From contig SDNP01000014.1 in NCBI GenBank assembly GCA_004524445.1, positions 9,013 to 73,012 on the forward strand: 64,000 bases of DNA. Reading direction: 5' to 3'. A program made the position numbers and the translations under genes. The notes below the pieces were generated by a model. That model had not been told where the DNA came from. It saw nothing but the letters and a program-made list of their open reading frames with translations, and did no database searches. Positions 32,144 to 42,899 of the stretch are shown one piece after another; the first letter of the stretch is position 1; the number at the start of each line of letters is the position of its first letter. This DNA comes from Candidatus Thorarchaeota archaeon. Lineage in GTDB: Archaea; Asgardarchaeota; Thorarchaeia; Thorarchaeales; Thorarchaeaceae.

Positions 32144-33007
32144 TCATTCACCGTCTGACCGACTCACAGGCGGCTCGGGCATATCACCATGATGATCCAC
32201 ATGAAGCCGCGTGATTTGGGATAGCACCAACCGATCCCCATTGACAAGAACTTCAATATTGATGTGGTCATCAAGGCCACTAGTGGATAGCTTCTTGACA
32301 AGGACAGCTTCAACTTGGAAGACGCCCGCTGGATTATCCATTGCAACTGTTATTCGCAAAGGCTTGTCGTCACCCTTCTCAAGGATTACATTATTGATAG
32401 CCATTGCGCTGACACTATGTATGTCAACCTTCCCTTGGTGGAAGGGGACCATCGTTCTGCCCTTGGTCATGTCACATCCATCACCGATTTTCGTTATTCC
32501 TGCTTCAAAGGTAAGACAGGGAGTGTCATCATCGTGGGCATAGATTCCGTGAAGAATTGCAGACAGGATGTCCGTCGCTTTTGCAGAGTCATCATAGATT
32601 TGCTCCAATTTCGGTTCTAGAATAGGAGCAGAGAGCTGAATGGCTGCTTGGTAATGTTCCTTTCGATGAATAACCATTCCTAGATCATGTAGGTATGTAG
32701 ATGCCAATACAACAAGGCGAGCATCATCTGTATCGCCAATACCTTCAGCAACAACATTGGGCATGAAGGCTTCGTCCAAAATCGTGAAGGCTTGAAGTGC
32801 ATTCCAAGTAGCAACTTCTGCATGAATGGGTCCGTGGTCAGTATACCCTAGTCTTGAAACGGCCATTCTATTAGCAGTTCGTAGATAGGACTGAACTTTG
32901 GGTGAACCCGTTAGATATTGATACATCTCCAGTGCTTTCGTTCCGGTTTCGAGCAAGTCTCTTGCCTTTACCTTATCTCTATCCAAAACAGATTGAGTTT
33001 CAGTCAT
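32144..33007 (-). CDS. HD-domain phosphohydrolase
   Basis: RLGYTDHGPIHA, LHDLGM, DGCDMTKGR and DIHSVSA motifs. Confidence 0.88.
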   Translation of the reverse strand: MTETQSVLDRDKVKARDLLETGTKALEMYQYLTGSPKVQSYLRTANRMAVSRLGYTDHGPIHAEVATWNALQAFTILDEAFMPNVVAEGIGDTDDARLVVLASTYLHDLGMVIHRKEHYQAAIQLSAPILEPKLEQIYDDSAKATDILSAILHGIYAHDDDTPCLTFEAGITKIGDGCDMTKGRTMVPFHQGKVDIHSVSAMAINNVILEKGDDKPLRITVAMDNPAGVFQVEAVLVKKLSTSGLDDHINIEVLVNGDRLVLSQITRLHVDHHGDMPEPPVSRSDGE

Positions 33008-33082: not shown

Positions 33083-36031
33083 TTATAGCTCTCCAGCTTC
33101 CTCTTGCAGGGATAGGAGAATTCTATCTGTTGCACTAGTGGCTTTTTTGATTGTGTTCAAGTAGTCCTGTCGCGATTTCTCGAATGCAACCCGACTAATC
33201 CTCTGCTTTTTCCTACGAAGCAATAGTTGACGAAGGCCAGCTTTGGCTCCTTCGATTTTCTCGTTCTGGAGCTCGAGCTGAGAAACAATGTCACGGTATT
33301 TAGTACCATACTCAATCAATTTGTCCTTGAGTTCTGGTAGTTTATCATCAATTTCCTCTAGCTGACCCTTTATCTCTCGCTCTCTTATCATATACTCCTT
33401 TTTGCTGACTTTACCTCTTCTTCGCGATGCCTCCAGCTTCTCAAGATCCATATTCAGTGAGATACGCTTAGAATATGCATTGGCGAACTCAATCAAGAGG
33501 CCAGGCGGGGCCCCCGTCTGCACCCTTTGTTGCTCCTTTTCTTCGACTTCTGAAGGAGGAGTTCCTCCCGGCTCAATTACAGATCTCCGTGATAAGATGT
33601 AGGCTATTCCAATAAAGCCAAACAGAAGAGCAAACACGAAGGGTCGAGCGGCGATTCCAATGGAGAGTTGATATATCAGGTTGATTTCCGCAGGATTCTT
33701 TTCAGTAGTGTTGTATATCTCATAACGCAAACGTGTATCAAATATCCCAAATAGAAGTCTATAATCACCTTCAGCCTCTATTGCATTGACTGAGGGCGGC
33801 ATTGCAATGTCTACGATATGCTTTGTTATCAGTATATCACCAAGAGTTACAAAGGGGAATTTTATGCGGTTTCCAGAAGAGACACCACTCTGATATTCAG
33901 AGAGTTGAATTGTGTAATCCATCTGGAAGGTGTAAGTGAATCCCTTGAAGAAGCCCTCTGGACCGAATCTGTCCTTTCTTAAATCAAGGCCGATAGGTAT
34001 TGTTTCATTAGATGCCCATAGCTTAGGCTGTGAATCTGCCAGAATTCCTACCTCATCGTAGATGGAAATTGTGTCGACATATGCTGGTGCTTCAAGATCA
34101 AATTCATTCTGTTTTGCCGGTCCAAGATTGCGAAAAGTGATTGTTTCCTCATAGGAAAGCCAACCCCATGGATCCATTGTAATCTTGGTATAGCGATCAG
34201 CGACTATGAACGGAGTAAATGATCTAATCTCCATTGTAAATTCTTCAATCGTCATGGGAGATATGGTTTTCCAGTTTCCGGATGGTGATTTTCCACTCAA
34301 CGAATCGCCACTTCTGAACTCGATTGACAACTGAGCGCTTCGTAATGGATATGGTAGCACAGGATATTTGAGAAAAGTGATCTCGTAGAGGTTATCATCG
34401 AATACCGTCAACTCATGCAATGAATGCAAAAAGGTGGTCATTGTGAATCTATAGGTTCCACCAAATCCAACAGGTGATGGTAAATAGACTCTCCACCGTA
34501 GCATAGTATTTGTATCACTAAGTCGAATGACTTTAACCTCTTCTTCTTCCGAATCTGTTGCAGAGGTGGAGAGAAGGTAGGTTTCCCATTTCAGAGGCAA
34601 TACTACATCAAAAGCGGTAATGGGCGCAGAACCGTTGTTAGTAACAGTATAATCATCTTGGATCTCGGTAGTATGATACTCTCGAGTGTACAGAGTTCGA
34701 GATACATCCAATCTCATTCCCTGAAGGGGGATGAAAGGCCAAACTACAGTGATATTGACGTGGGTCGTTGTATTGTAGTTGGAGGCATCAGTTGCTTTGA
34801 ACCAGATTGTATAATTGCCCGCCTCATAATCGGTAAGGTCTAATCGGTATTCCCACAGGTCTGTTTGAAAATTATGTGATATATCAGTCCAGTTCTCATC
34901 ATCCACTTTATAGTAGGTTCGTCTGACGAAACTATTGTCAGTGACATTTACTTCGAGTTCAACAGACCAAGATACCTCTTGATTCGGAGCAGGGGATAGG
35001 ATGTCAATATGTGGTGCTGTGTTTGTTTCTATCGTTGCCTGGGGAGAATCAACCCAACTTGAATGCTGAACTGGCAAATCTCGAATATCTTCAGTATTGG
35101 CGAACAAGACTGTAAGTGGATACTGCAGGTCAGTTGCATTGAGAAGGGGGATGCCTTCTGTACTATTCATATTAATGGCGTATTCGACTTGTGTACGTAT
35201 TCCGTCATCGCGTGCATTAGCGGACAGAATTCTTCCTTGATCCGTATAAGGAAGGTGCTGGTATGTGCTGATACCATAATCATATCTATAGTCGATTTCA
35301 TTTGCATCTGCAGGATTGTCATAATTGTCTTCAATGCGCTGGAGAGTGATTTCGTACTCTAAGTCATAACCGTAAAGAGGATGGTCCTCTTGATTATATG
35401 CATCCTCAGCAGGGATGATGAAGTGTCTTACCTCGCCAATACGCATCCCAATTATTTGATTCTTGTACTCTTCAAGAAGCTGTTCCTCTGATATCGGAGT
35501 ATCGGATGAGTCATCAGGTACTTCTCCTTCCTCAAGTATCGTGCCATTTCTTGTCTTCAGTACATAGTGCACCGTGACTGCTTCAGAACCCGTCACTCTC
35601 ACAATATCCTCATGAGGTGTGCCAGGGGCATAGCCGTAAATTAGGTCACTACGGTTAAGTCCGTCTATACCGAATGAGTCCGTGTAGTTTTTCCAACCAA
35701 AACCAATCCAGCCATTTGTGGAGGCTGACAGTCCGACATAGAGAATGGATGAATTATGTTCTAGATACACTTCTACACCTGTTATGGGATCAGTGTAGGA
35801 TGCTGCATATTCTGTGGGGTCTATTATGCCATCAGCAAAACCATAATGGGCATCGACATACGGAATGGTAACGTTTGTGAATGTCTGGGCCAGAGATGGT
35901 TGTCGCTGATCTATATTGTTGACTGTATTGGGTTCAGTAGTAACATTACTGGAATCAAGCGCCACGAAGCAGCTTGTTAGCATCAGTACTACCAGAGCCA
36001 TTGTTGCTATTCTTCTGTGCAGCATACTCAA
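33083..36031 (-). CDS. Ribophorin-I (OST1/RPN1)-like membrane protein with an N-terminal DOMON-like domain, inserted FKBP domain and Ig-like domain
   Basis: MDPWGWLSYEETITFRNLG, ISIYDEVG, RF...FTYTFQMDY (ribophorin-like); VTVHY..IIGMRIGEVRHFIIPAEDAY (FKBP); GWIGFGW..SDLIYG (DOMON); TM plus cytoplasmic coiled coil. Confidence 0.8.
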   Translation of the reverse strand: MSMLHRRIATMALVVLMLTSCFVALDSSNVTTEPNTVNNIDQRQPSLAQTFTNVTIPYVDAHYGFADGIIDPTEYAASYTDPITGVEVYLEHNSSILYVGLSASTNGWIGFGWKNYTDSFGIDGLNRSDLIYGYAPGTPHEDIVRVTGSEAVTVHYVLKTRNGTILEEGEVPDDSSDTPISEEQLLEEYKNQIIGMRIGEVRHFIIPAEDAYNQEDHPLYGYDLEYEITLQRIEDNYDNPADANEIDYRYDYGISTYQHLPYTDQGRILSANARDDGIRTQVEYAINMNSTEGIPLLNATDLQYPLTVLFANTEDIRDLPVQHSSWVDSPQATIETNTAPHIDILSPAPNQEVSWSVELEVNVTDNSFVRRTYYKVDDENWTDISHNFQTDLWEYRLDLTDYEAGNYTIWFKATDASNYNTTTHVNITVVWPFIPLQGMRLDVSRTLYTREYHTTEIQDDYTVTNNGSAPITAFDVVLPLKWETYLLSTSATDSEEEEVKVIRLSDTNTMLRWRVYLPSPVGFGGTYRFTMTTFLHSLHELTVFDDNLYEITFLKYPVLPYPLRSAQLSIEFRSGDSLSGKSPSGNWKTISPMTIEEFTMEIRSFTPFIVADRYTKITMDPWGWLSYEETITFRNLGPAKQNEFDLEAPAYVDTISIYDEVGILADSQPKLWASNETIPIGLDLRKDRFGPEGFFKGFTYTFQMDYTIQLSEYQSGVSSGNRIKFPFVTLGDILITKHIVDIAMPPSVNAIEAEGDYRLLFGIFDTRLRYEIYNTTEKNPAEINLIYQLSIGIAARPFVFALLFGFIGIAYILSRRSVIEPGGTPPSEVEEKEQQRVQTGAPPGLLIEFANAYSKRISLNMDLEKLEASRRRGKVSKKEYMIREREIKGQLEEIDDKLPELKDKLIEYGTKYRDIVSQLELQNEKIEGAKAGLRQLLLRRKKQRISRVAFEKSRQDYLNTIKKATSATDRILLSLQEEAGEL

Positions 36032-36222: not shown

Positions 36223-37260
36223 TTGCTGAATATCATACTGGCATTTGCTCTATCGTCACTTGTCGTCATTGGCGCAATGCCGACAATTATTAAGATGCTT
36301 GAAGAGAAGAAAATGTGTGGAATAGACGTACACAAACCCGAAAAACCTGAAGTGCCCAAAGGAGCTGGGTTCATACTCCTCTTCGCAATAGTAGGATCGC
36401 TCTTATTCTGGATAGGGATTACAACATTTCAAGCCCAGCAGGTTGTTAATCCGGGGCTTCTAGCGGCACTTGTATCGATTCTTATGGCAGGAATGATTGG
36501 GCTTCTTGATGATAACTTCGATTTCAGGAATAGAACGAAGGTTCTGCTTCCGCTAATAGCATCCATACCCATGATGGCCATGCAAGTAGGGGTTTCTAAA
36601 ATGACTATTCCATTTATCGGCACTCTTGATCTTGGACTTGTCTATCCTCTCATCATTGTTCCCCTCATGATGACCTTCATCATCGATTCCACGAATATGT
36701 ACGGTGGGATGAATGGGCTCGAAGTAGGATTGGCTGTTGTGAATTCGTCAGCCATTGTTGTGTTCATGTTGTTGTCGCCCAGCTTTACAGGAGTGCCTTT
36801 GAACCAAGGACAGACTGATGCGGTCACCATTGCTGCCGCTCTTCTCGGTGGATCCATTGCATTCTATATTTATAATCGATATCCAGCGAAGGTGCTCCCA
36901 GGAGATGTCGGAAGACTGCCTCTTGGAGCAACAATGGCTGCAGCACTCATACTTGGAAACATGGATAGATTGGCAGTTTTCCTTTACATCACATTCATGG
37001 TTAATTTCTTAATGTACCTCGGCTATCGAATATATGTTAAGAGGAAAAATAGCGAGTGGGCGAAATTTGCGGATGTGCAGGAGGATGGCTCTCTGGAAGT
37101 AGTGGGGCCGTTCACGATGTACTGGCTCTTTCCTTGGCTGCTGGGTGGTATAGACGAAAAGAAAAACGTCATCATTCTCATAACGCTACAAGCAATCATA
37201 GCATATTCAGCAGTTGTCCTACTACTGGTCGGTATTCCGTTGGGCATAGGATGGATTTGA
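36223..37260 (+). CDS. aglH: UDP-GlcNAc:dolichyl-phosphate GlcNAc-1-phosphate transferase (AglH/Alg7, MraY family)
   Basis: GIDVHKP..PEVP, IGLLDD, NMYGGMNGLE and YNRYPAKVLPGDVG motifs. Confidence 0.85.
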   Translation: MLNIILAFALSSLVVIGAMPTIIKMLEEKKMCGIDVHKPEKPEVPKGAGFILLFAIVGSLLFWIGITTFQAQQVVNPGLLAALVSILMAGMIGLLDDNFDFRNRTKVLLPLIASIPMMAMQVGVSKMTIPFIGTLDLGLVYPLIIVPLMMTFIIDSTNMYGGMNGLEVGLAVVNSSAIVVFMLLSPSFTGVPLNQGQTDAVTIAAALLGGSIAFYIYNRYPAKVLPGDVGRLPLGATMAAALILGNMDRLAVFLYITFMVNFLMYLGYRIYVKRKNSEWAKFADVQEDGSLEVVGPFTMYWLFPWLLGGIDEKKNVIILITLQAIIAYSAVVLLLVGIPLGIGWI

Positions 37261-37282: not shown

Positions 37283-38335
37283 TCAAATGATTTTAGCTGG
37301 TAGATACGAGTCAACAACAAAGTCCATGCCATGACGACTAAAGGCCTGTTGTTCAGCCTTCTTTCGAATATCCTTGAATTTCAGTATATGATTCTGCCAA
37401 TATGCTGTCTGGTATCGAGGGTCAAGAGATAGCTCATCTAACCGTTTGAGATCGGAATCACTCATTTTCTCAGTAGGCAAATCATATTCTTCTATATCTC
37501 TCGCGGTAACTCCAATCCATTCAGCATCAGGAACAGCCAAGTCAGAAATGTGTGCTGCATTTGCGCTCCCCGCCATGATTACTCTAGCAATATGAAGACC
37601 CCACGGATCTCCATCAGTGAATATATAGACGGGCAGATTCAAATCACAATGAAGGCGTTTCAGGAGATTACGGGTTGATCGGGGAGCCTGCCCGCCAAGG
37701 TGTACAAGTACTGCTCCAAATTTTTCCCAACAGCGGGTTTCAATCAAGCGGGAGAATATTCCTCCTGATTCCACCGCTAGAACTAGGTCAGCCTCTGTTT
37801 CGACCAGTTCTGCAGTCATTAGAGCAGCTCCAATTGGAAGCCCATCAGGACTGGTGGTCAATTCTATCTCCTTGCCCTCGTAGCCTGGTACTGTATACTG
37901 CATTGTAACTTGCCCAAAAATCGATGAGTGCTCTTCGGGAAAAATGCCCAAATCCTCTCTGGAAAGACCGGTAAGACATTCCAAGTCAGATACTATTCGA
38001 TCTGATTCTGATTGGTCCCTAAATTCGACCCCAAAGGCCTCGCTGGAGTAGTAGAGGTCTCTAAGAGAACTAGTTCTGCCTGTTTCAAGCAGCCGTTTTG
38101 TATAGGATGCAACCCAGAGTAGTTTCGAGAAACTACTTACATGTCGCAAATTCCCCGAGTCTCTAACAACCTTTGATTTTCCTAGTCTGAAGCGTTTTGA
38201 AACTGGATCATAGCTCATGTTGTCAGTACTTCGATCGCTAAGCTCCAATGTTGGGAATTGATGATTTCTAACAGAGGTGATTATATCTTCGCCGATATTC
38301 CTAAGAAGTGTGATTCTGGGGTCAGTTTCAGTCAA
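37283..38335 (-). CDS. top6A: DNA topoisomerase VI subunit A (TTG start after GAGGTG)
   Basis: SLRDLYY (catalytic Tyr), AVESGG, FTDGDPWG and KKAEQQA motifs. Confidence 0.95.
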   Translation of the reverse strand: MTETDPRITLLRNIGEDIITSVRNHQFPTLELSDRSTDNMSYDPVSKRFRLGKSKVVRDSGNLRHVSSFSKLLWVASYTKRLLETGRTSSLRDLYYSSEAFGVEFRDQSESDRIVSDLECLTGLSREDLGIFPEEHSSIFGQVTMQYTVPGYEGKEIELTTSPDGLPIGAALMTAELVETEADLVLAVESGGIFSRLIETRCWEKFGAVLVHLGGQAPRSTRNLLKRLHCDLNLPVYIFTDGDPWGLHIARVIMAGSANAAHISDLAVPDAEWIGVTARDIEEYDLPTEKMSDSDLKRLDELSLDPRYQTAYWQNHILKFKDIRKKAEQQAFSRHGMDFVVDSYLPAKII

Positions 38336-38336
38336 T

Positions 38337-39854
38337 TTATTCCACCTCAAAGAGTGACTTGACCATGTGGGCAGAGTCTGGGAAATGGTCAATATCTGCA
38401 AGGGAGGCGGCGGACTCGATGATAGTTTCAAAATATGATTCGAATTTCCTCATTCTTCGTTCAGCGCGACCAGCATTTCTTTTGGTCCTAACCCTTTTCC
38501 TTAATGAACGCCCTAGATAGCGTAACAGAGTGAGAGCTTCTTCAGAAATATTGCAGGCCGATGCAATTGACTGCTTGCCTGCCGCTTTGTAAGGCACCCT
38601 AGTTGAGCAGAAATGGAGATAAACAGCAACTCTCATTCCTGAGTCCAGTCCATAACGCGTCCAGTTTAGTTGGCGTATTACTTTAGAGAAGACATCCTCA
38701 GTTGGGTCGTAGAGAAGAGGCACCCTATTTGCGAATCTATAGAGACTTGGGACTTTTCCTGTTGGAAACATTTCACCTGTTGCAAGAACAGCTTCTATTA
38801 TGAATGGAAATCCATCACAATCTGAAGGATCCGTACATGCATAATCAATGATTTCACTATTGGTAGAAGCCTGTACTGATTTTACGAAGGATTCCTTGCC
38901 AATTGGACTTAGGCAACTGCTGTCAGGTCGCCCAAAACCATCAAATTTGCGCAACCCATCACTCAGGAGGGCTACTTCTTTCCTGCTCAAATTGGAAACA
39001 TTGGTTCTACTGCTGAAATTCAGGAAGTTAAGGATTTTTGAGGCTCTCTTTCTGCCTAGCTGCTGAAAGGAGTTCACAAGCAGTTCCTCCAATGATTTGG
39101 TGGGGCTGGATTTGATAATCCGTCGCAAGAGCTCGACATCTGCTGATCGCGGATGTGGCTTGTTATCCTGTGGAAGAGGAGGGAGCAGTTCGTCATAGGG
39201 ACCGAATGAATCTTTGAAATCATCTGTGATGTTGACCAGAATTTGAGCATGGGGAGTACCTACAGCACTAAGTCTAAGATATTCAATAATCCGCTCCCTT
39301 GAGCGTAGGCTATCTCCACGCATATGGATTGTGACTGTTGTACCAGGGGTTTCCCGTGGTTTGGCCTGAACGGAATCTACAATTGGTTCGTTCTTTTGGA
39401 CATCTATAAGGACTCTATATTCTCTCCCCTCATTATTAGTTGGCCGAGTGTGGATAAGTGCAGCACTATCAGTTGTAATTTGGCCGTAAAGTACTGCCAT
39501 TGTCACGCCAAGACCAAAAGTGCCTCTTCTCTGTCGCGAACTATACTTACTCCCGTACAAGATTCTGCCAAAAGCATCAGGAACCTGTTCATGAGGAACA
39601 CCTGTTCCGTTGTCTGAAACAGTGATTACCACCTCATCCGATACAGGATTTGAAACACTAACCTGTACATCAGGAAATTGCCTTGCAGTATCACAGGCAT
39701 CTAAGCTGTTTTCTACTAGCTCTCGAACTACCGTATAGACAGCCTGGGTTGGATTACTGAACCCAGCCATCTGCTTATTCCGGTAAAAGAACTCTGCAGG
39801 CGAGATGCTACTGAATGTTTCCTCAAGAACAGACTCTGCTGTCATATTATCCAC
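38337..39854 (-). CDS. top6B: DNA topoisomerase VI subunit B
   Basis: SPAEFFYRN, ELVENSLDA, DNGTG, RGTFGLG and RFANRVPLLY motifs. Confidence 0.95.
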   Translation of the reverse strand: MDNMTAESVLEETFSSISPAEFFYRNKQMAGFSNPTQAVYTVVRELVENSLDACDTARQFPDVQVSVSNPVSDEVVITVSDNGTGVPHEQVPDAFGRILYGSKYSSRQRRGTFGLGVTMAVLYGQITTDSAALIHTRPTNNEGREYRVLIDVQKNEPIVDSVQAKPRETPGTTVTIHMRGDSLRSRERIIEYLRLSAVGTPHAQILVNITDDFKDSFGPYDELLPPLPQDNKPHPRSADVELLRRIIKSSPTKSLEELLVNSFQQLGRKRASKILNFLNFSSRTNVSNLSRKEVALLSDGLRKFDGFGRPDSSCLSPIGKESFVKSVQASTNSEIIDYACTDPSDCDGFPFIIEAVLATGEMFPTGKVPSLYRFANRVPLLYDPTEDVFSKVIRQLNWTRYGLDSGMRVAVYLHFCSTRVPYKAAGKQSIASACNISEEALTLLRYLGRSLRKRVRTKRNAGRAERRMRKFESYFETIIESAASLADIDHFPDSAHMVKSLFEVE

Positions 39855-39899
39855 TGAAGATTGTGGATTAAGCTATTTTCAGACCAAGTATTACATATC

Positions 39900-40472
39900 T
39901 TAGAGCGGTTGTTCCCATAATTCGGCTTCGTATCGATTGATTGCTCTTCTTGCCCGCTCAAGGTACTTGTAGACAGAGGAGTGAGGAGCGCCATCAATCA
40001 ACATAGTGACCGCACGTCGAGCGTAATCTAGACCGGGATTTGGGCCGATAAGAGATACTGTCTTTCCATAGACGGAAACAAGAACATCGGTGGTCTGTTC
40101 AATGAATTTGCGTGTCCGTCCGTTTTCTCCAATAATACGACCTGCTACTCTCTTTATTTGGCTTGGCGAAGTCCCCACCAAATCGCGTAGTGATATGATA
40201 ATCAGTCTGTAGTCCTCTTCTATCAACGACAAAGCTTTCTTGGGGCTGAATCCTCGAGCCATAGCTCGTATAATGTCGCGTGCTTTCCAAGCCAAGATTG
40301 GACTCGCATTCTCTTCATCAGGCGGAGTTGTAATCGTCACAGCCCCTTCTTGAGAAGAAACATCTATCTTTGTATTAGTCAGCTTTTCAACTCTCTTCCT
40401 CACGCGACCATTCTTGCCAACTATGACACCTATTCGTTCGCTAGGTACTCGAATTGTTTCGTGGAAATACAT
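39900..40472 (-). CDS. KH-domain ribosome biogenesis protein (Dim2/Pno1)
   Basis: RIGVIVGKNG, ARGFSP, GRIIGENG and GAPHSSVY motifs. Confidence 0.92.
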   Translation of the reverse strand: MYFHETIRVPSERIGVIVGKNGRVRKRVEKLTNTKIDVSSQEGAVTITTPPDEENASPILAWKARDIIRAMARGFSPKKALSLIEEDYRLIIISLRDLVGTSPSQIKRVAGRIIGENGRTRKFIEQTTDVLVSVYGKTVSLIGPNPGLDYARRAVTMLIDGAPHSSVYKYLERARRAINRYEAELWEQPL

Positions 40473-40473
40473 T

Positions 40474-41259
40474 TTATTCCTCATCCGATGATAATATGTA
40501 GTCAGTAATGTCTTGGGTATCTGCGGTTTCTACTTCTAGCTTGTTGAAGTAAGATGTGATGTTTTGAATATCTCTATAGAGGTATTTCTCTGCGTAGTCA
40601 TGGGCTTTGAGAACAGCTTGAGAAACGTCTATGAAATAGGGCTTCTCTAGCCAGAGTATATTGAATTCGCTAAGATCAGCGTGGACCAATTGTGCTTCCG
40701 TGTAACCAATTTCTATCATACCAATTATCTCATTAAAGGCTTCTACTGGTGACTCCAGCTCGACATCCTTAAGCAGCGGTGCCGGTAATTTTGATTCATC
40801 ATCACCTATGAACTCCATGACTAATACATTCTTGTCTACTGCAATGGGTTCCGGTACACTCACGCCCGCCTCATGATATCTCTTTAGATTCTTGAACTCT
40901 TTTGCAGCCCATTGTGGAATTAGTGTTCGGCTTCGTCTGCTCACTCTAGAAAATCGAGGGTCGCTTATCATGTACTCTCGCATATAGTGAGTTTCAGCAG
41001 TTGAAACGCGATATATCTTGACGGCAAGTGGTTTGCCATCGGGATCCGCTCCCCTGTAGACACCAGCCTCCTTACCTGTGCTTATCGCCCCATAAACTGC
41101 ATCCAACACGCCTTTGTTCAACAGGCGATACAATACCTTTAGGGTTGGCGGGTCTATTACACCCTCAACAACCTTGAACTCGTCCGAGTCCTTCCTTTTG
41201 GACTTCTGGCGATCCAACTCATCTTGAATGGATTGCCACTCTTGTTCAGCATCTTTCAA
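40474..41259 (-). CDS. rio1: RIO1 serine/threonine kinase
   Basis: ISTGKEAGVY, AVKIY, LVHADLSEFN and IDVSQAV motifs. Confidence 0.95.
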   Translation of the reverse strand: MKDAEQEWQSIQDELDRQKSKRKDSDEFKVVEGVIDPPTLKVLYRLLNKGVLDAVYGAISTGKEAGVYRGADPDGKPLAVKIYRVSTAETHYMREYMISDPRFSRVSRRSRTLIPQWAAKEFKNLKRYHEAGVSVPEPIAVDKNVLVMEFIGDDESKLPAPLLKDVELESPVEAFNEIIGMIEIGYTEAQLVHADLSEFNILWLEKPYFIDVSQAVLKAHDYAEKYLYRDIQNITSYFNKLEVETADTQDITDYILSSDEE

Positions 41260-41340
41260 TTCCTGATTTCACCTGAGACACTAATTACAAGCTCTCTATC
41301 AGCCTTGGATGTTCAGAGAGAAAAAGTTTGGGCATGGAAC

Positions 41341-41658
41341 TCAGAACATCTTCAGGATGCCCTTTCTCTTAAGCCAATCCACTTCATTTCCACGATATCG
41401 CCAGACAACATCGCATTTCTCATCGCTCTGGAAAGCCCACGGTACTACTAGTACTGTATCCCCCATTCGCATCCATATCCTCTTCTTCATTCTACCGGGG
41501 ATACGGCCGATTCTCATTTCGCCATCTTCGCATCTTACTCTGACACGATCATGGCCAAGCATCTGCACAATGATACCAAACATTTCGCCTTCATCTCGAT
41601 GTGGAGTCCTTACTCTAAAGGTTGCTTCATCAGATGAGTCGTTATTTCTTGGTGACAA
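41341..41658 (-). CDS. eif1a: Translation initiation factor aIF-1A
   Basis: RIPGRMKKRIWMRMGD, VVPWAFQ, VWRY. Confidence 0.95.
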   Translation of the reverse strand: MSPRNNDSSDEATFRVRTPHRDEGEMFGIIVQMLGHDRVRVRCEDGEMRIGRIPGRMKKRIWMRMGDTVLVVPWAFQSDEKCDVVWRYRGNEVDWLKRKGILKMF

Positions 41659-41789
41659 AATAATCCTCCAATATGCCGCAGGCTTAGAATCCGCGGTGTG
41701 TAAATTTGATGGTGAAAAGTGGGCATTTAAGAGTACCGAAACATCATTGGCAAGTTCACTAATTGAGGGTCAAAATTCATGAAGCAGCA

Positions 41790-42899
41790 TTATGAGTCAT
41801 TTGTTTCTTCTGTGGAGGACGGCAAAATATGGATGTCACCCTCATATTCGATTCCTTTGACTATGGCGCCTGGTTGAATATCCTCTGACTTGAGGACAGC
41901 CGATTCAACTTCCACAACTTGGAAGGATTCTTGGTCCATAAGCTGAATTGGTTGATCATAGGCATTAGCAACCACCATGAACTCTTTTGCAGCTGAATTG
42001 GGTGCAATGAATTGTATTGACTGCCAGCGAGAGCTTTTTGGATTAATAGTGAAGTGTTCGCGAGTGACCAAGTCATAGCATGCCAGTCCGCCTCGACCCA
42101 TATCTAGAACTTGACATAAGTTTCCCGACACTTGGATGAAGTCGTCTCTTGAGAAGCGAGGAAGGCGTAGCAAGATTGTAATCCTGAATTTCTCTTTGCC
42201 ATCTTTTTCTTGACCAATCAGTTTGTAATTCTCTTTGCGTTCAGCTAAGTATCGTGCCTCGACCTCATCTGCAATACGGCGGGCTAGGTGTTCTGAACCA
42301 ATATAGAAGTCCAATCCAAATTTCGTATCATCTACTTCTATTATGAAAGCTCTTTCATCCCTGCCATATTCAGAGACCGTAAGGTCAGTTGCGAGGTCAG
42401 CAATGCTCTCTTCTTCGCTTTCAGAAACGGGTCGTTCATCTGCTCTAATCTGGATGATGGCTTCATGATAGCCACCGCTCATCATTCCACAGGTGTCACA
42501 AGTTCCATAGTCAAACCGAATTTCAACTGGGTATTCCTCAGTGTGAGGGGCGAGGTCATCATGGGATTTGCCTCGGGCTACGAGATTTATGTGGAGAACT
42601 CTATCTAGTTTATTCGTTTCAACAATAGTAACTTCGAGGTCGTTTCCAAGTGCCTCTATTTCTCTATCAAGAACAATCGACACATGTTCTTCTCTTGTTG
42701 TCACCTTATCCTCCGGTGATGATTTTATGGTCTGCCAGCCCCCAGGTACTTTGACTGCCCCACATCTCTTACATACAACTAGTCTGACAAGTGGGTCTAC
42801 TTTCATGAGTGGATGTTCTTCGTTGTAGCAGTCAGCGCATAGACCGTCAACTACTGAAGGGGCTCCACATAGATAACATGGCGCTGGCAAAGTATTCAC
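41790..42899 (-). CDS. nmd3: NMD3 family 60S export-factor homologue
   Basis: Four CxxC pairs, GGYHEAIIQIR, C-terminal eIF5A-like OB region. Confidence 0.9.
   Translation of the reverse strand: MNTLPAPCYLCGAPSVVDGLCADCYNEEHPLMKVDPLVRLVVCKRCGAVKVPGGWQTIKSSPEDKVTTREEHVSIVLDREIEALGNDLEVTIVETNKLDRVLHINLVARGKSHDDLAPHTEEYPVEIRFDYGTCDTCGMMSGGYHEAIIQIRADERPVSESEEESIADLATDLTVSEYGRDERAFIIEVDDTKFGLDFYIGSEHLARRIADEVEARYLAERKENYKLIGQEKDGKEKFRITILLRLPRFSRDDFIQVSGNLCQVLDMGRGGLACYDLVTREHFTINPKSSRWQSIQFIAPNSAAKEFMVVANAYDQPIQLMDQESFQVVEVESAVLKSEDIQPGAIVKGIEYEGDIHILPSSTEETNDS

Follow-up and report, generated by a model that had tools for sequence, protein, structure and literature searches.

A thorarchaeal ribophorin I homologue with an FKBP domain nested in a DOMON-like sandwich at its N-terminus

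What would an FKBP-type prolyl isomerase domain do in a protein that otherwise looks like ribophorin I (OST1), an accessory subunit of the oligosaccharyltransferase (OST) and so of the N-glycosylation and secretion machinery? The role of ribophorin I is itself unsettled, and substrate delivery, chaperoning and ribosome docking have all been proposed. The question is raised by a gene of Candidatus Thorarchaeota archaeon (2.79 Mb genome, 90% complete), located in a 64,000-nucleotide (nt) stretch of contig SDNP01000014.1, hereafter referred to as the window. The gene, at positions 33083–36031 on the minus strand, is a single open frame of 982 codons, encoding a protein of 982 amino acids (aa). 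Its domain order, detailed in Table 1, is a signal peptide or anchor, a DOMON-like β-sandwich with a nested FKBP domain, an Ig-like domain of the Big_7 family, the ribophorin I luminal domains, one transmembrane (TM) helix, and a cytosolic domain. An extracytoplasmic FKBP domain built into an OST-type subunit is what the original prediction, made without database searches, had proposed for this locus, and its domain reading proved right in every part.

The C-terminal 550 residues are strongly supported as the orthologue of Asgard and eukaryotic OST1, with two extracellular β-sandwiches, a TM helix and a cytosolic domain. When excised, residues 433–812 match the Pfam family Ribophorin_I (PF04597) with an E-value of 4.2e-10 (39.7 bits, for a cut-off of 25), and 28 of 55 relatives match it too. 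Scans of the full-length 982-aa sequence against Pfam and NCBIfam did not list this family, Pfam returning Big_7 and FKBP_C only; this is probably the reason that such proteins appear in public records just as FKBP isomerases or Ig-domain proteins. Because an HMMER profile of the ribophorin region found no RPN1 or Ost1 among the PDB sequences at E-values up to 10, both Pfam and structure were needed to establish the link. A model of the region, generated with AlphaFold2 (AF2) from a 55-sequence alignment, has a pLDDT of 92. In a Foldseek search with this model, the first eight positions are taken by chains of human RPN1 and yeast Ost1 from electron cryo-microscopy structures of the OST (E-values of 3.9e-25 to 2.3e-17, TM-scores by query of 0.67–0.75), led by human RPN1 (8b6l_O, E 3.9e-25), and the match that follows them is at 1e-7. 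VIA-align gave Z-scores of 27.8–32.2 to RPN1 and Ost1 over 353–367 residues including the TM helix (the best, 32.2, over 367 residues), the next fold being the N-domain of M1 aminopeptidases, with a Z-score of 13.5.

For the cytosolic part, phmmer aligned residues 828–975 to 8WHN_A (‘Ribophorin 1 superfamily protein’), with an E-value of 7.1e-6. This structure shows a cytosolic four-helix bundle, that of OST1 (607 aa) from ‘Ca. Prometheoarchaeum syntrophicum’ MK-D1; ribosomes were pulled down with this domain, as they are with its human counterpart (PMC11417166). The window protein resembles the OST1 of MK-D1 and of other Asgard archaea in its ribophorin luminal domains, single TM helix and cytosolic helical domain, and differs from the MK-D1 protein by about 400 additional N-terminal residues, which hold the DOMON-like domain with its nested FKBP and the Big_7 Ig domain. 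With human RPN1 (8B6L chain O, 6S7O chain E) and yeast Ost1 (6EZN chain A) it shares the fold of both sandwiches and the TM helix, at 13–16% identity. In contrast, eukaryotic ribophorin I begins directly with the ribophorin domain, without any FKBP, DOMON or Ig head, and the archaeal protein is in the cell membrane rather than the endoplasmic reticulum (ER). A six-frame profile search of the 2.79-Mb genome identified this gene as the only ribophorin I-like copy, and one plain STT3/AglB gene is present, on another contig.

Hydropathy analysis identifies two hydrophobic segments, at residues ∼6–30 (Kyte-Doolittle windows above 1.6) and ∼789–815. The second bears out the predicted TM helix, as the 8WHN match does the cytosolic helical domain, and in the AF2 model a helix at model residues 364–379 aligns with the TM helix of RPN1. 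All 16 N-X-S/T sequons lie between the two segments, with none in the C-terminal 163 residues; over the 55 relatives, the mean is 15.8 in the ectodomain versus 0.04 in the tail, and 11 of the sites are conserved in at least 43 members. Because the sequons are confined to the ectodomain and absent from the tail, the sequences strongly support a type I membrane glycoprotein whose bulk lies outside the cell and whose tail is cytosolic. The N-terminal segment is poorly conserved (27% identity to the relatives), as signal peptides usually are. The frame begins at a TTG (36031), a possible start codon with a GGTGA motif 6 nt upstream, and the next ATG codons are at 36025 (residue 3) and 36001 (residue 11).

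In the N-terminal head, Pfam FKBP_C (PF00254) matches residues 149–230 (E 1.3e-7, 32.2 bits, cut-off 21.1), placing the FKBP domain at nt ∼35324–35602, close to the ∼35335–35600 of the original prediction, and Big_7 (PF17957) matches residues 340–409 (E 4.6e-9, 37.2 bits, cut-off 24.1), which accounts for the Ig-like domain expected after the sandwich. A family profile searched against the PDB identified FKBP2/FKBP13 (E 1.6e-6). The AF2 model of residues 40–335 has a pLDDT of 91 and a pTM of 0.87. In an exhaustive structural search with VIA-align, the sandwich aligned with the DOMON superfamily across both sides of the insert (model residues 11–296), as would be expected of a DOMON-like domain split by an FKBP. 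These alignments cover 137–170 residues, and include the ethylbenzene dehydrogenase γ subunit (2IVF_C, Z-score of 16.1 over 166 residues), NxrC (7B04_C, 14.7), CBM9 (1I82, 12.9), the DOMON domain of dopamine β-hydroxylase (4ZEL, 12.9) and the cytochrome domain of cellobiose dehydrogenase (1D7C, 12.7). Scanned separately, the two DOMON halves (residues 40–146 and 236–335) have no Pfam match at E-values up to 1. The A2 family profile does match five proteins (P0131, P0132, P0133, P0138 and P0143; E-values of 1.6e-33 to 8.7e-16), all of which carry the Pfam DOMON domain (PF03351). The sandwich thus has both a DOMON-type fold and a transitive sequence link to DOMON proteins. It shares the β-sandwich of that superfamily, but is split by a 93-residue FKBP insert and, in the aligned sequences, shows no conserved Met/His or Met/Lys heme ligands.

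Model residues 105–197 align with SlyD (Z-score of 11.8), FKBP13 (11.4) and other FKBPs, and the top Foldseek match of the head is human FKBP11 (9n9j_A, E 3.7e-5, VIA Z-score of 10.3). By Z-score and identity, the nearest FKBP structures are SlyD from T. thermophilus (3CGM), FKBP26 from M. jannaschii (3PRB) and MtFKBP17 (1IX5), with Z-scores of 11.8, 10.0 and 8.7 respectively, and 26–29% identity over 84–86 residues. Unlike SlyD and the archaeal short FKBPs, the FKBP domain of the window protein does not include a chaperone domain inserted in the flap, is extracytoplasmic and rich in glycosylation sites, is inserted in another domain, and has a pocket that is derived in its clade. Some FKBP12-type alignments begin at model residue 22–25, within the N-terminal strand of the DOMON part, which suggests that in the model this strand completes the FKBP sheet. 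Because the pTM is 0.87 and FKBP alignments recruit a DOMON strand, the model points to a rigid two-domain unit of fixed arrangement.

This architecture is not peculiar to one genome. More than 200 full-length relatives were found (930–1010 aa, 48–57% identity), nearly all from Thorarchaeota metagenome-assembled genomes, and most are named ‘FKBP-type peptidyl-prolyl cis-trans isomerase’ in public records, others ‘Ig-like domain-containing protein’ or ‘hypothetical’. A phylum-wide sample of 301 genomes has the complete head in 73 of the 76 members of the window's family, and in the one genome representing a sister family of the same order; elsewhere in the sample, matches are limited to FKBP or DOMON pieces on their own. 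With the ribophorin profile, 207 of 268 genomes are matched, and the complete frames listed outside these two families are 575–650 aa long, the size of the MK-D1 OST1. Within 1.84 billion representative proteins, just 8 clusters were found to have the whole nested head in one continuous stretch; they consist of ∼980-aa OST1 forms, fragments and ∼570–590-aa paralogues. Long FKBP-containing matches of the head profile (P0149, P0155, P0204, P0240) were checked for a fusion with AglB, and none contains STT3. It is strongly supported that ∼400 residues, a DOMON domain with an FKBP in one loop followed by a Big_7 Ig domain, were added to the N-terminus in the ancestor of the order, Thorarchaeales. 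It follows that the head was accreted onto the sole OST1 gene within this one order, and that it has occasionally been duplicated as a free-standing surface module.

Such a duplicate was observed in two other genera of the family (G299 and G182), as a second gene encoding 586–595 aa (L003:2130–3890, plus strand, and L002:2534–4321, plus strand). These paralogues possess the same signal, DOMON(FKBP) and Ig head, with 38% identity over residues 1–435, and have further Ig/PKD-like sequence in place of the ribophorin part. In one genome of the same family (G236, a single contig, 86% complete), neither the ribophorin gene nor its neighbouring glycosyltransferase gene was matched. Because the neighbour is unmatched too, the locus is probably missing from the assembly, and this is not an informative natural loss. 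In genome G209, a C-terminal fragment of the gene lies at a contig end.

Conservation was computed over the 55 relatives, as their mean identity to the window protein. The cytosolic domain is the most conserved part of the whole protein (72%), and the N-terminal half of the DOMON sandwich is the most conserved extracellular part (66%), followed by the FKBP domain (57%), the C-terminal DOMON half (47%), the ribophorin domains (44–46%) and the Ig domain (42%). The FKBP12 pocket is formed by residues Y26, F36, D37, F46, V55, I56, W59, Y82 and F99, and was mapped onto the family through a HMMER alignment to FKBP13. Y26 and Y82 are retained in all 55 relatives (as Y156 and Y212), and conservative changes are found for I56 (L186, 55/55), W59 (Y189, 54/55), F99 (Y226, 52/55) and F36 (L or I in the majority). 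Judged on these sequences, the head is functional and not decaying, because it is near-universal in the family, its DOMON N-terminal half and FKBP domain are more conserved than the ribophorin domains, five of its pocket positions are invariant or nearly so, and the predicted arrangement is fixed.

The nature of the DOMON ligand can also be approached from the alignment. Invariant acidic residues are found in the N-terminal half (D60, D67, D71, E74, D81, E91 and D129) and in the C-terminal half (E283), and His62, His92, His259, Trp108, Trp113, Trp326, D275 and Y284 are conserved. Across the 55 relatives, the sandwich offers no conserved Met, Lys or Cys for coordinating heme in the manner of ethylbenzene dehydrogenase γ or cellobiose dehydrogenase. 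Since these are missing, yet invariant acidic and conserved His and Trp residues are present, a sugar or metal ligand appears more likely than heme.

I propose, with moderate confidence, that the protein is the OST1 of a Sec/AglB translocon, whose head presents FKBP and DOMON sites to emerging, glycosylated chains as a foldase or holdase. The cytosolic domain would dock the translating ribosome, and at the cell membrane the TM helix and membrane-proximal domain would have AglB/STT3 and the Sec channel as neighbours. The Ig domain would act as a spacer, holding the rigid DOMON-FKBP head outside the cell, near the exit of unfolded, newly glycosylated chains. There, the FKBP pocket would bind proline-containing or hydrophobic chain segments, serving as a holdase if not as a prolyl isomerase, and the DOMON part would bind its ligand, probably a sugar or metal rather than heme. 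In favour of the proposal stand the ribophorin identity, the topology, the constraint on the head, the neighbouring glycosyltransferase gene (Table 1), a complex prediction that lends weak support to contact with AglB, and the parallel with human FKBP11.

Several observations weigh against this proposal. In the pocket, D37 is lost (Q in 39/55 relatives, E in 15/55), as is F46 (S in 46/55), and the AF2 model lacks the β-strand on which F46 lies in canonical FKBPs. Because of these two substitutions and the missing strand, the catalytic efficiency of the FKBP may be low or lost in the window's family. The association with AglB is inferred from homology and from one weak complex prediction, in which AglB 1–800 and residues 621–815 scored 0.59, with a best control of 0.00. 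Of 80 solved complexes, 58 attain the mark for this score, as do 2 of 110 mismatched pairs, but at scores of 0.60 or below it was attained by just 7 of the 80 solved complexes and by both of the passing mismatches. At least 80% of contacts are shared among the three runs, with a partner pLDDT of at least 74; since eukaryotic OST structures exist, this pass may be memory of solved complexes. The free-standing paralogues indicate that the head can work away from OST1. Finally, human FKBP11, a stand-alone membrane FKBP recruited to the ribosome-bound Sec61/OST-A translocon (PDB 9N9J/9YGY), has its pocket buried by CCDC134, and the authors argue against an isomerase role on the nascent chain (PMC12804085). 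For this reason the FKBP11 analogy would support co-location, not catalysis. In both cases the FKBP is on the exoplasmic or luminal side of an OST-bearing translocon; however, FKBP11 is a separate, recruited single-pass protein whose own C-terminal helix contacts the ribosome, whereas the FKBP of the window protein is covalently part of OST1 and nested in DOMON. The two are 18–19% identical, and common descent is not implied.

The history of the pocket bears on these points. The sister-family orthologue (L004:2460–5516, minus strand; 1018 aa, 33% identity overall) has the same architecture, with an 11-residue insert after its F-D motif, and both it and the protein P0128 keep the canonical pocket motifs F-D, V-I-x-G-F, G-Y and L-I-F (FD..VIEGF..GY..LIF in the orthologue). 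My reading is that a canonical FKBP was probably fused first, and that the pocket was later remodelled in the window's family and kept under strong selection. Such a conserved derived pocket fits a working binding site, and is compatible with that site having isomerase activity or not.

The most serious alternative, although clearly less probable than the proposal above, is that the FKBP is a non-catalytic binding or scaffolding module, with its Tyr-rich pocket holding a fixed partner such as another subunit, an S-layer or surface protein, or a segment of AglB. This would agree with the derived pocket and its D37 and F46 changes, with the missing F46 strand, and with the strong conservation of the pocket in spite of these, which fits a specific ligand; the burial of the FKBP11 pocket by CCDC134 (PMC12804085) provides a precedent, and the predicted rigid packing of FKBP on DOMON, with the strand recruited at model residues 22–25, points the same way. 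On the other hand, no candidate partner was identified, and the canonical pocket of the sister-family orthologue and P0128 indicates that the ancestral fusion probably carried an active foldase. It is rather unlikely that the head is independent of N-glycosylation altogether, serving as a surface receptor or redox module for heme or an environmental sugar with ribophorin I as a mere anchor. The best sandwich matches are indeed heme b subunits (ethylbenzene dehydrogenase γ, NxrC, the cellobiose dehydrogenase cytochrome) along with CBM9, and the head also exists in ∼570–595-aa proteins that have no ribophorin part, but no conserved Met, Lys or Cys is there to ligate heme as in the two dehydrogenases, the fusion is kept across the family as the only ribophorin I copy found, and conservation is highest in the cytosolic domain, which is of ribosome-binding type.

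That the protein is an ordinary FKBP-type peptidyl-prolyl isomerase, as the NCBI names of many homologues and the full-length Pfam result would have it, with a spurious likeness to ribophorin, can be set aside almost entirely. The FKBP domain makes up less than 10% of the protein, and this interpretation is refuted by the above-cut-off Ribophorin_I match of the excised region, the Z-score of 32 to RPN1 (367 residues, TM helix included) and the 8WHN match. The proposed translocon role also has a bolder extension, which I regard as improbable: the DOMON part would be a lectin for the cell's own N-glycan and the FKBP a foldase, giving, at the cell surface, a calnexin-like station on the oligosaccharyltransferase that binds the glycan and folds the chain with a single polypeptide. 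If true, this would represent glycan-assisted folding control in Asgard archaea, either independent of the eukaryotic ER system or preceding it. The original prediction had suggested that prolyl isomerisation is coupled to N-glycosylation, with a logic resembling ER quality control; this part of it is an unproven inference.

Ribophorin I in Asgard archaea has been reported previously (PMC10307638; PMC11417166), and no paper on an FKBP- or DOMON-ribophorin fusion was found in the searchable literature. The claim that this architecture is undescribed therefore fits that literature, but the more than 200 such proteins already in public databases qualify it. A stable, order-wide fusion of OST1, FKBP and DOMON constitutes a Rosetta-stone link, and argues that handling of the emerging chain is part of the job of OST1. 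A parallel is offered by the human translocon, solved recently, in which FKBP11 associates with OST-A as a protein of its own. The finding also corrects the public annotation of these proteins as mere FKBP isomerases or Ig-domain proteins. The head is also experimentally approachable, as a compact 280-residue module with a high-confidence model, and the canonical pocket of the sister family and the derived pocket of the window's family form a natural pair for comparing activity.

Table 1. Features of the ribophorin I (OST1) gene and of the divergent glycosyltransferase gene, with positions in the window.
Feature	Residues	Position (nt)	Strand	Evidence
Whole gene, ribophorin I (OST1) homologue with N-terminal DOMON(FKBP)-Ig head		33083..36031	-	Open reading frame list and translation
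N-terminal signal peptide or membrane anchor	1–28	35948..36031	-	Basic n-region (HRR), then hydrophobic stretch
DOMON-like β-sandwich, N-terminal half	53–143	35603..35875	-	VIA-align to DOMON-superfamily structures
FKBP domain nested in the DOMON sandwich	144–236	35324..35602	-	Pfam FKBP_C, profile, Foldseek, VIA
DOMON-like β-sandwich, C-terminal half	237–335	35027..35323	-	Structural alignments resume after the FKBP insert
Ig-like domain, Big_7	336–432	34736..35026	-	Pfam PF17957
Ribophorin I luminal (here extracellular) region, two β-sandwich domains	433–785	33677..34735	-	Pfam and structure match
Single TM helix	∼786–815	33587..33676	-	Hydropathy peak 785–816
Cytosolic helical domain	839–982	33086..33517	-	Homologous to ribosome-binding four-helix bundle of Asgard and human OST1
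GT4-family polyprenyl-phosphate sugar-1-phosphate transferase (AglH/Alg7-like)		36223..37260	+	Pfam Glycos_transf_4, E 4.9e-29

The gene adjacent to the ribophorin gene encodes a GT4-family transferase (Table 1), and is divergent from it across a 191-bp spacer. This divergent pairing recurs in the sister-family genome (G112, L004:5690–6667), and in two of five other Asgard genomes checked the GT4 and ribophorin I genes are also adjacent, divergent in G240 and co-directional in G267; in G029, G001 and G007 they are not adjacent. The adjacency is thus found in four Asgard families. The 287-aa open reading frame directly downstream of the ribophorin gene, at 32144–33007 on the minus strand, matches no family in Pfam or NCBIfam. 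Its syntenic counterpart in the sister family shares 45% identity with it, and has a weak HD domain score (E 1.9e-4). Gene order is the same in the window and in the sister family, with the HD-like gene, then the ribophorin gene, then the divergent GT4 gene. The upstream neighbours, at 37283–42899, are all ordinary informational genes, encoding topoisomerase VI subunits A and B (in overlapping frames), a KH-domain protein (Dim2/Krr1-like), a RIO1 kinase and NMD3.

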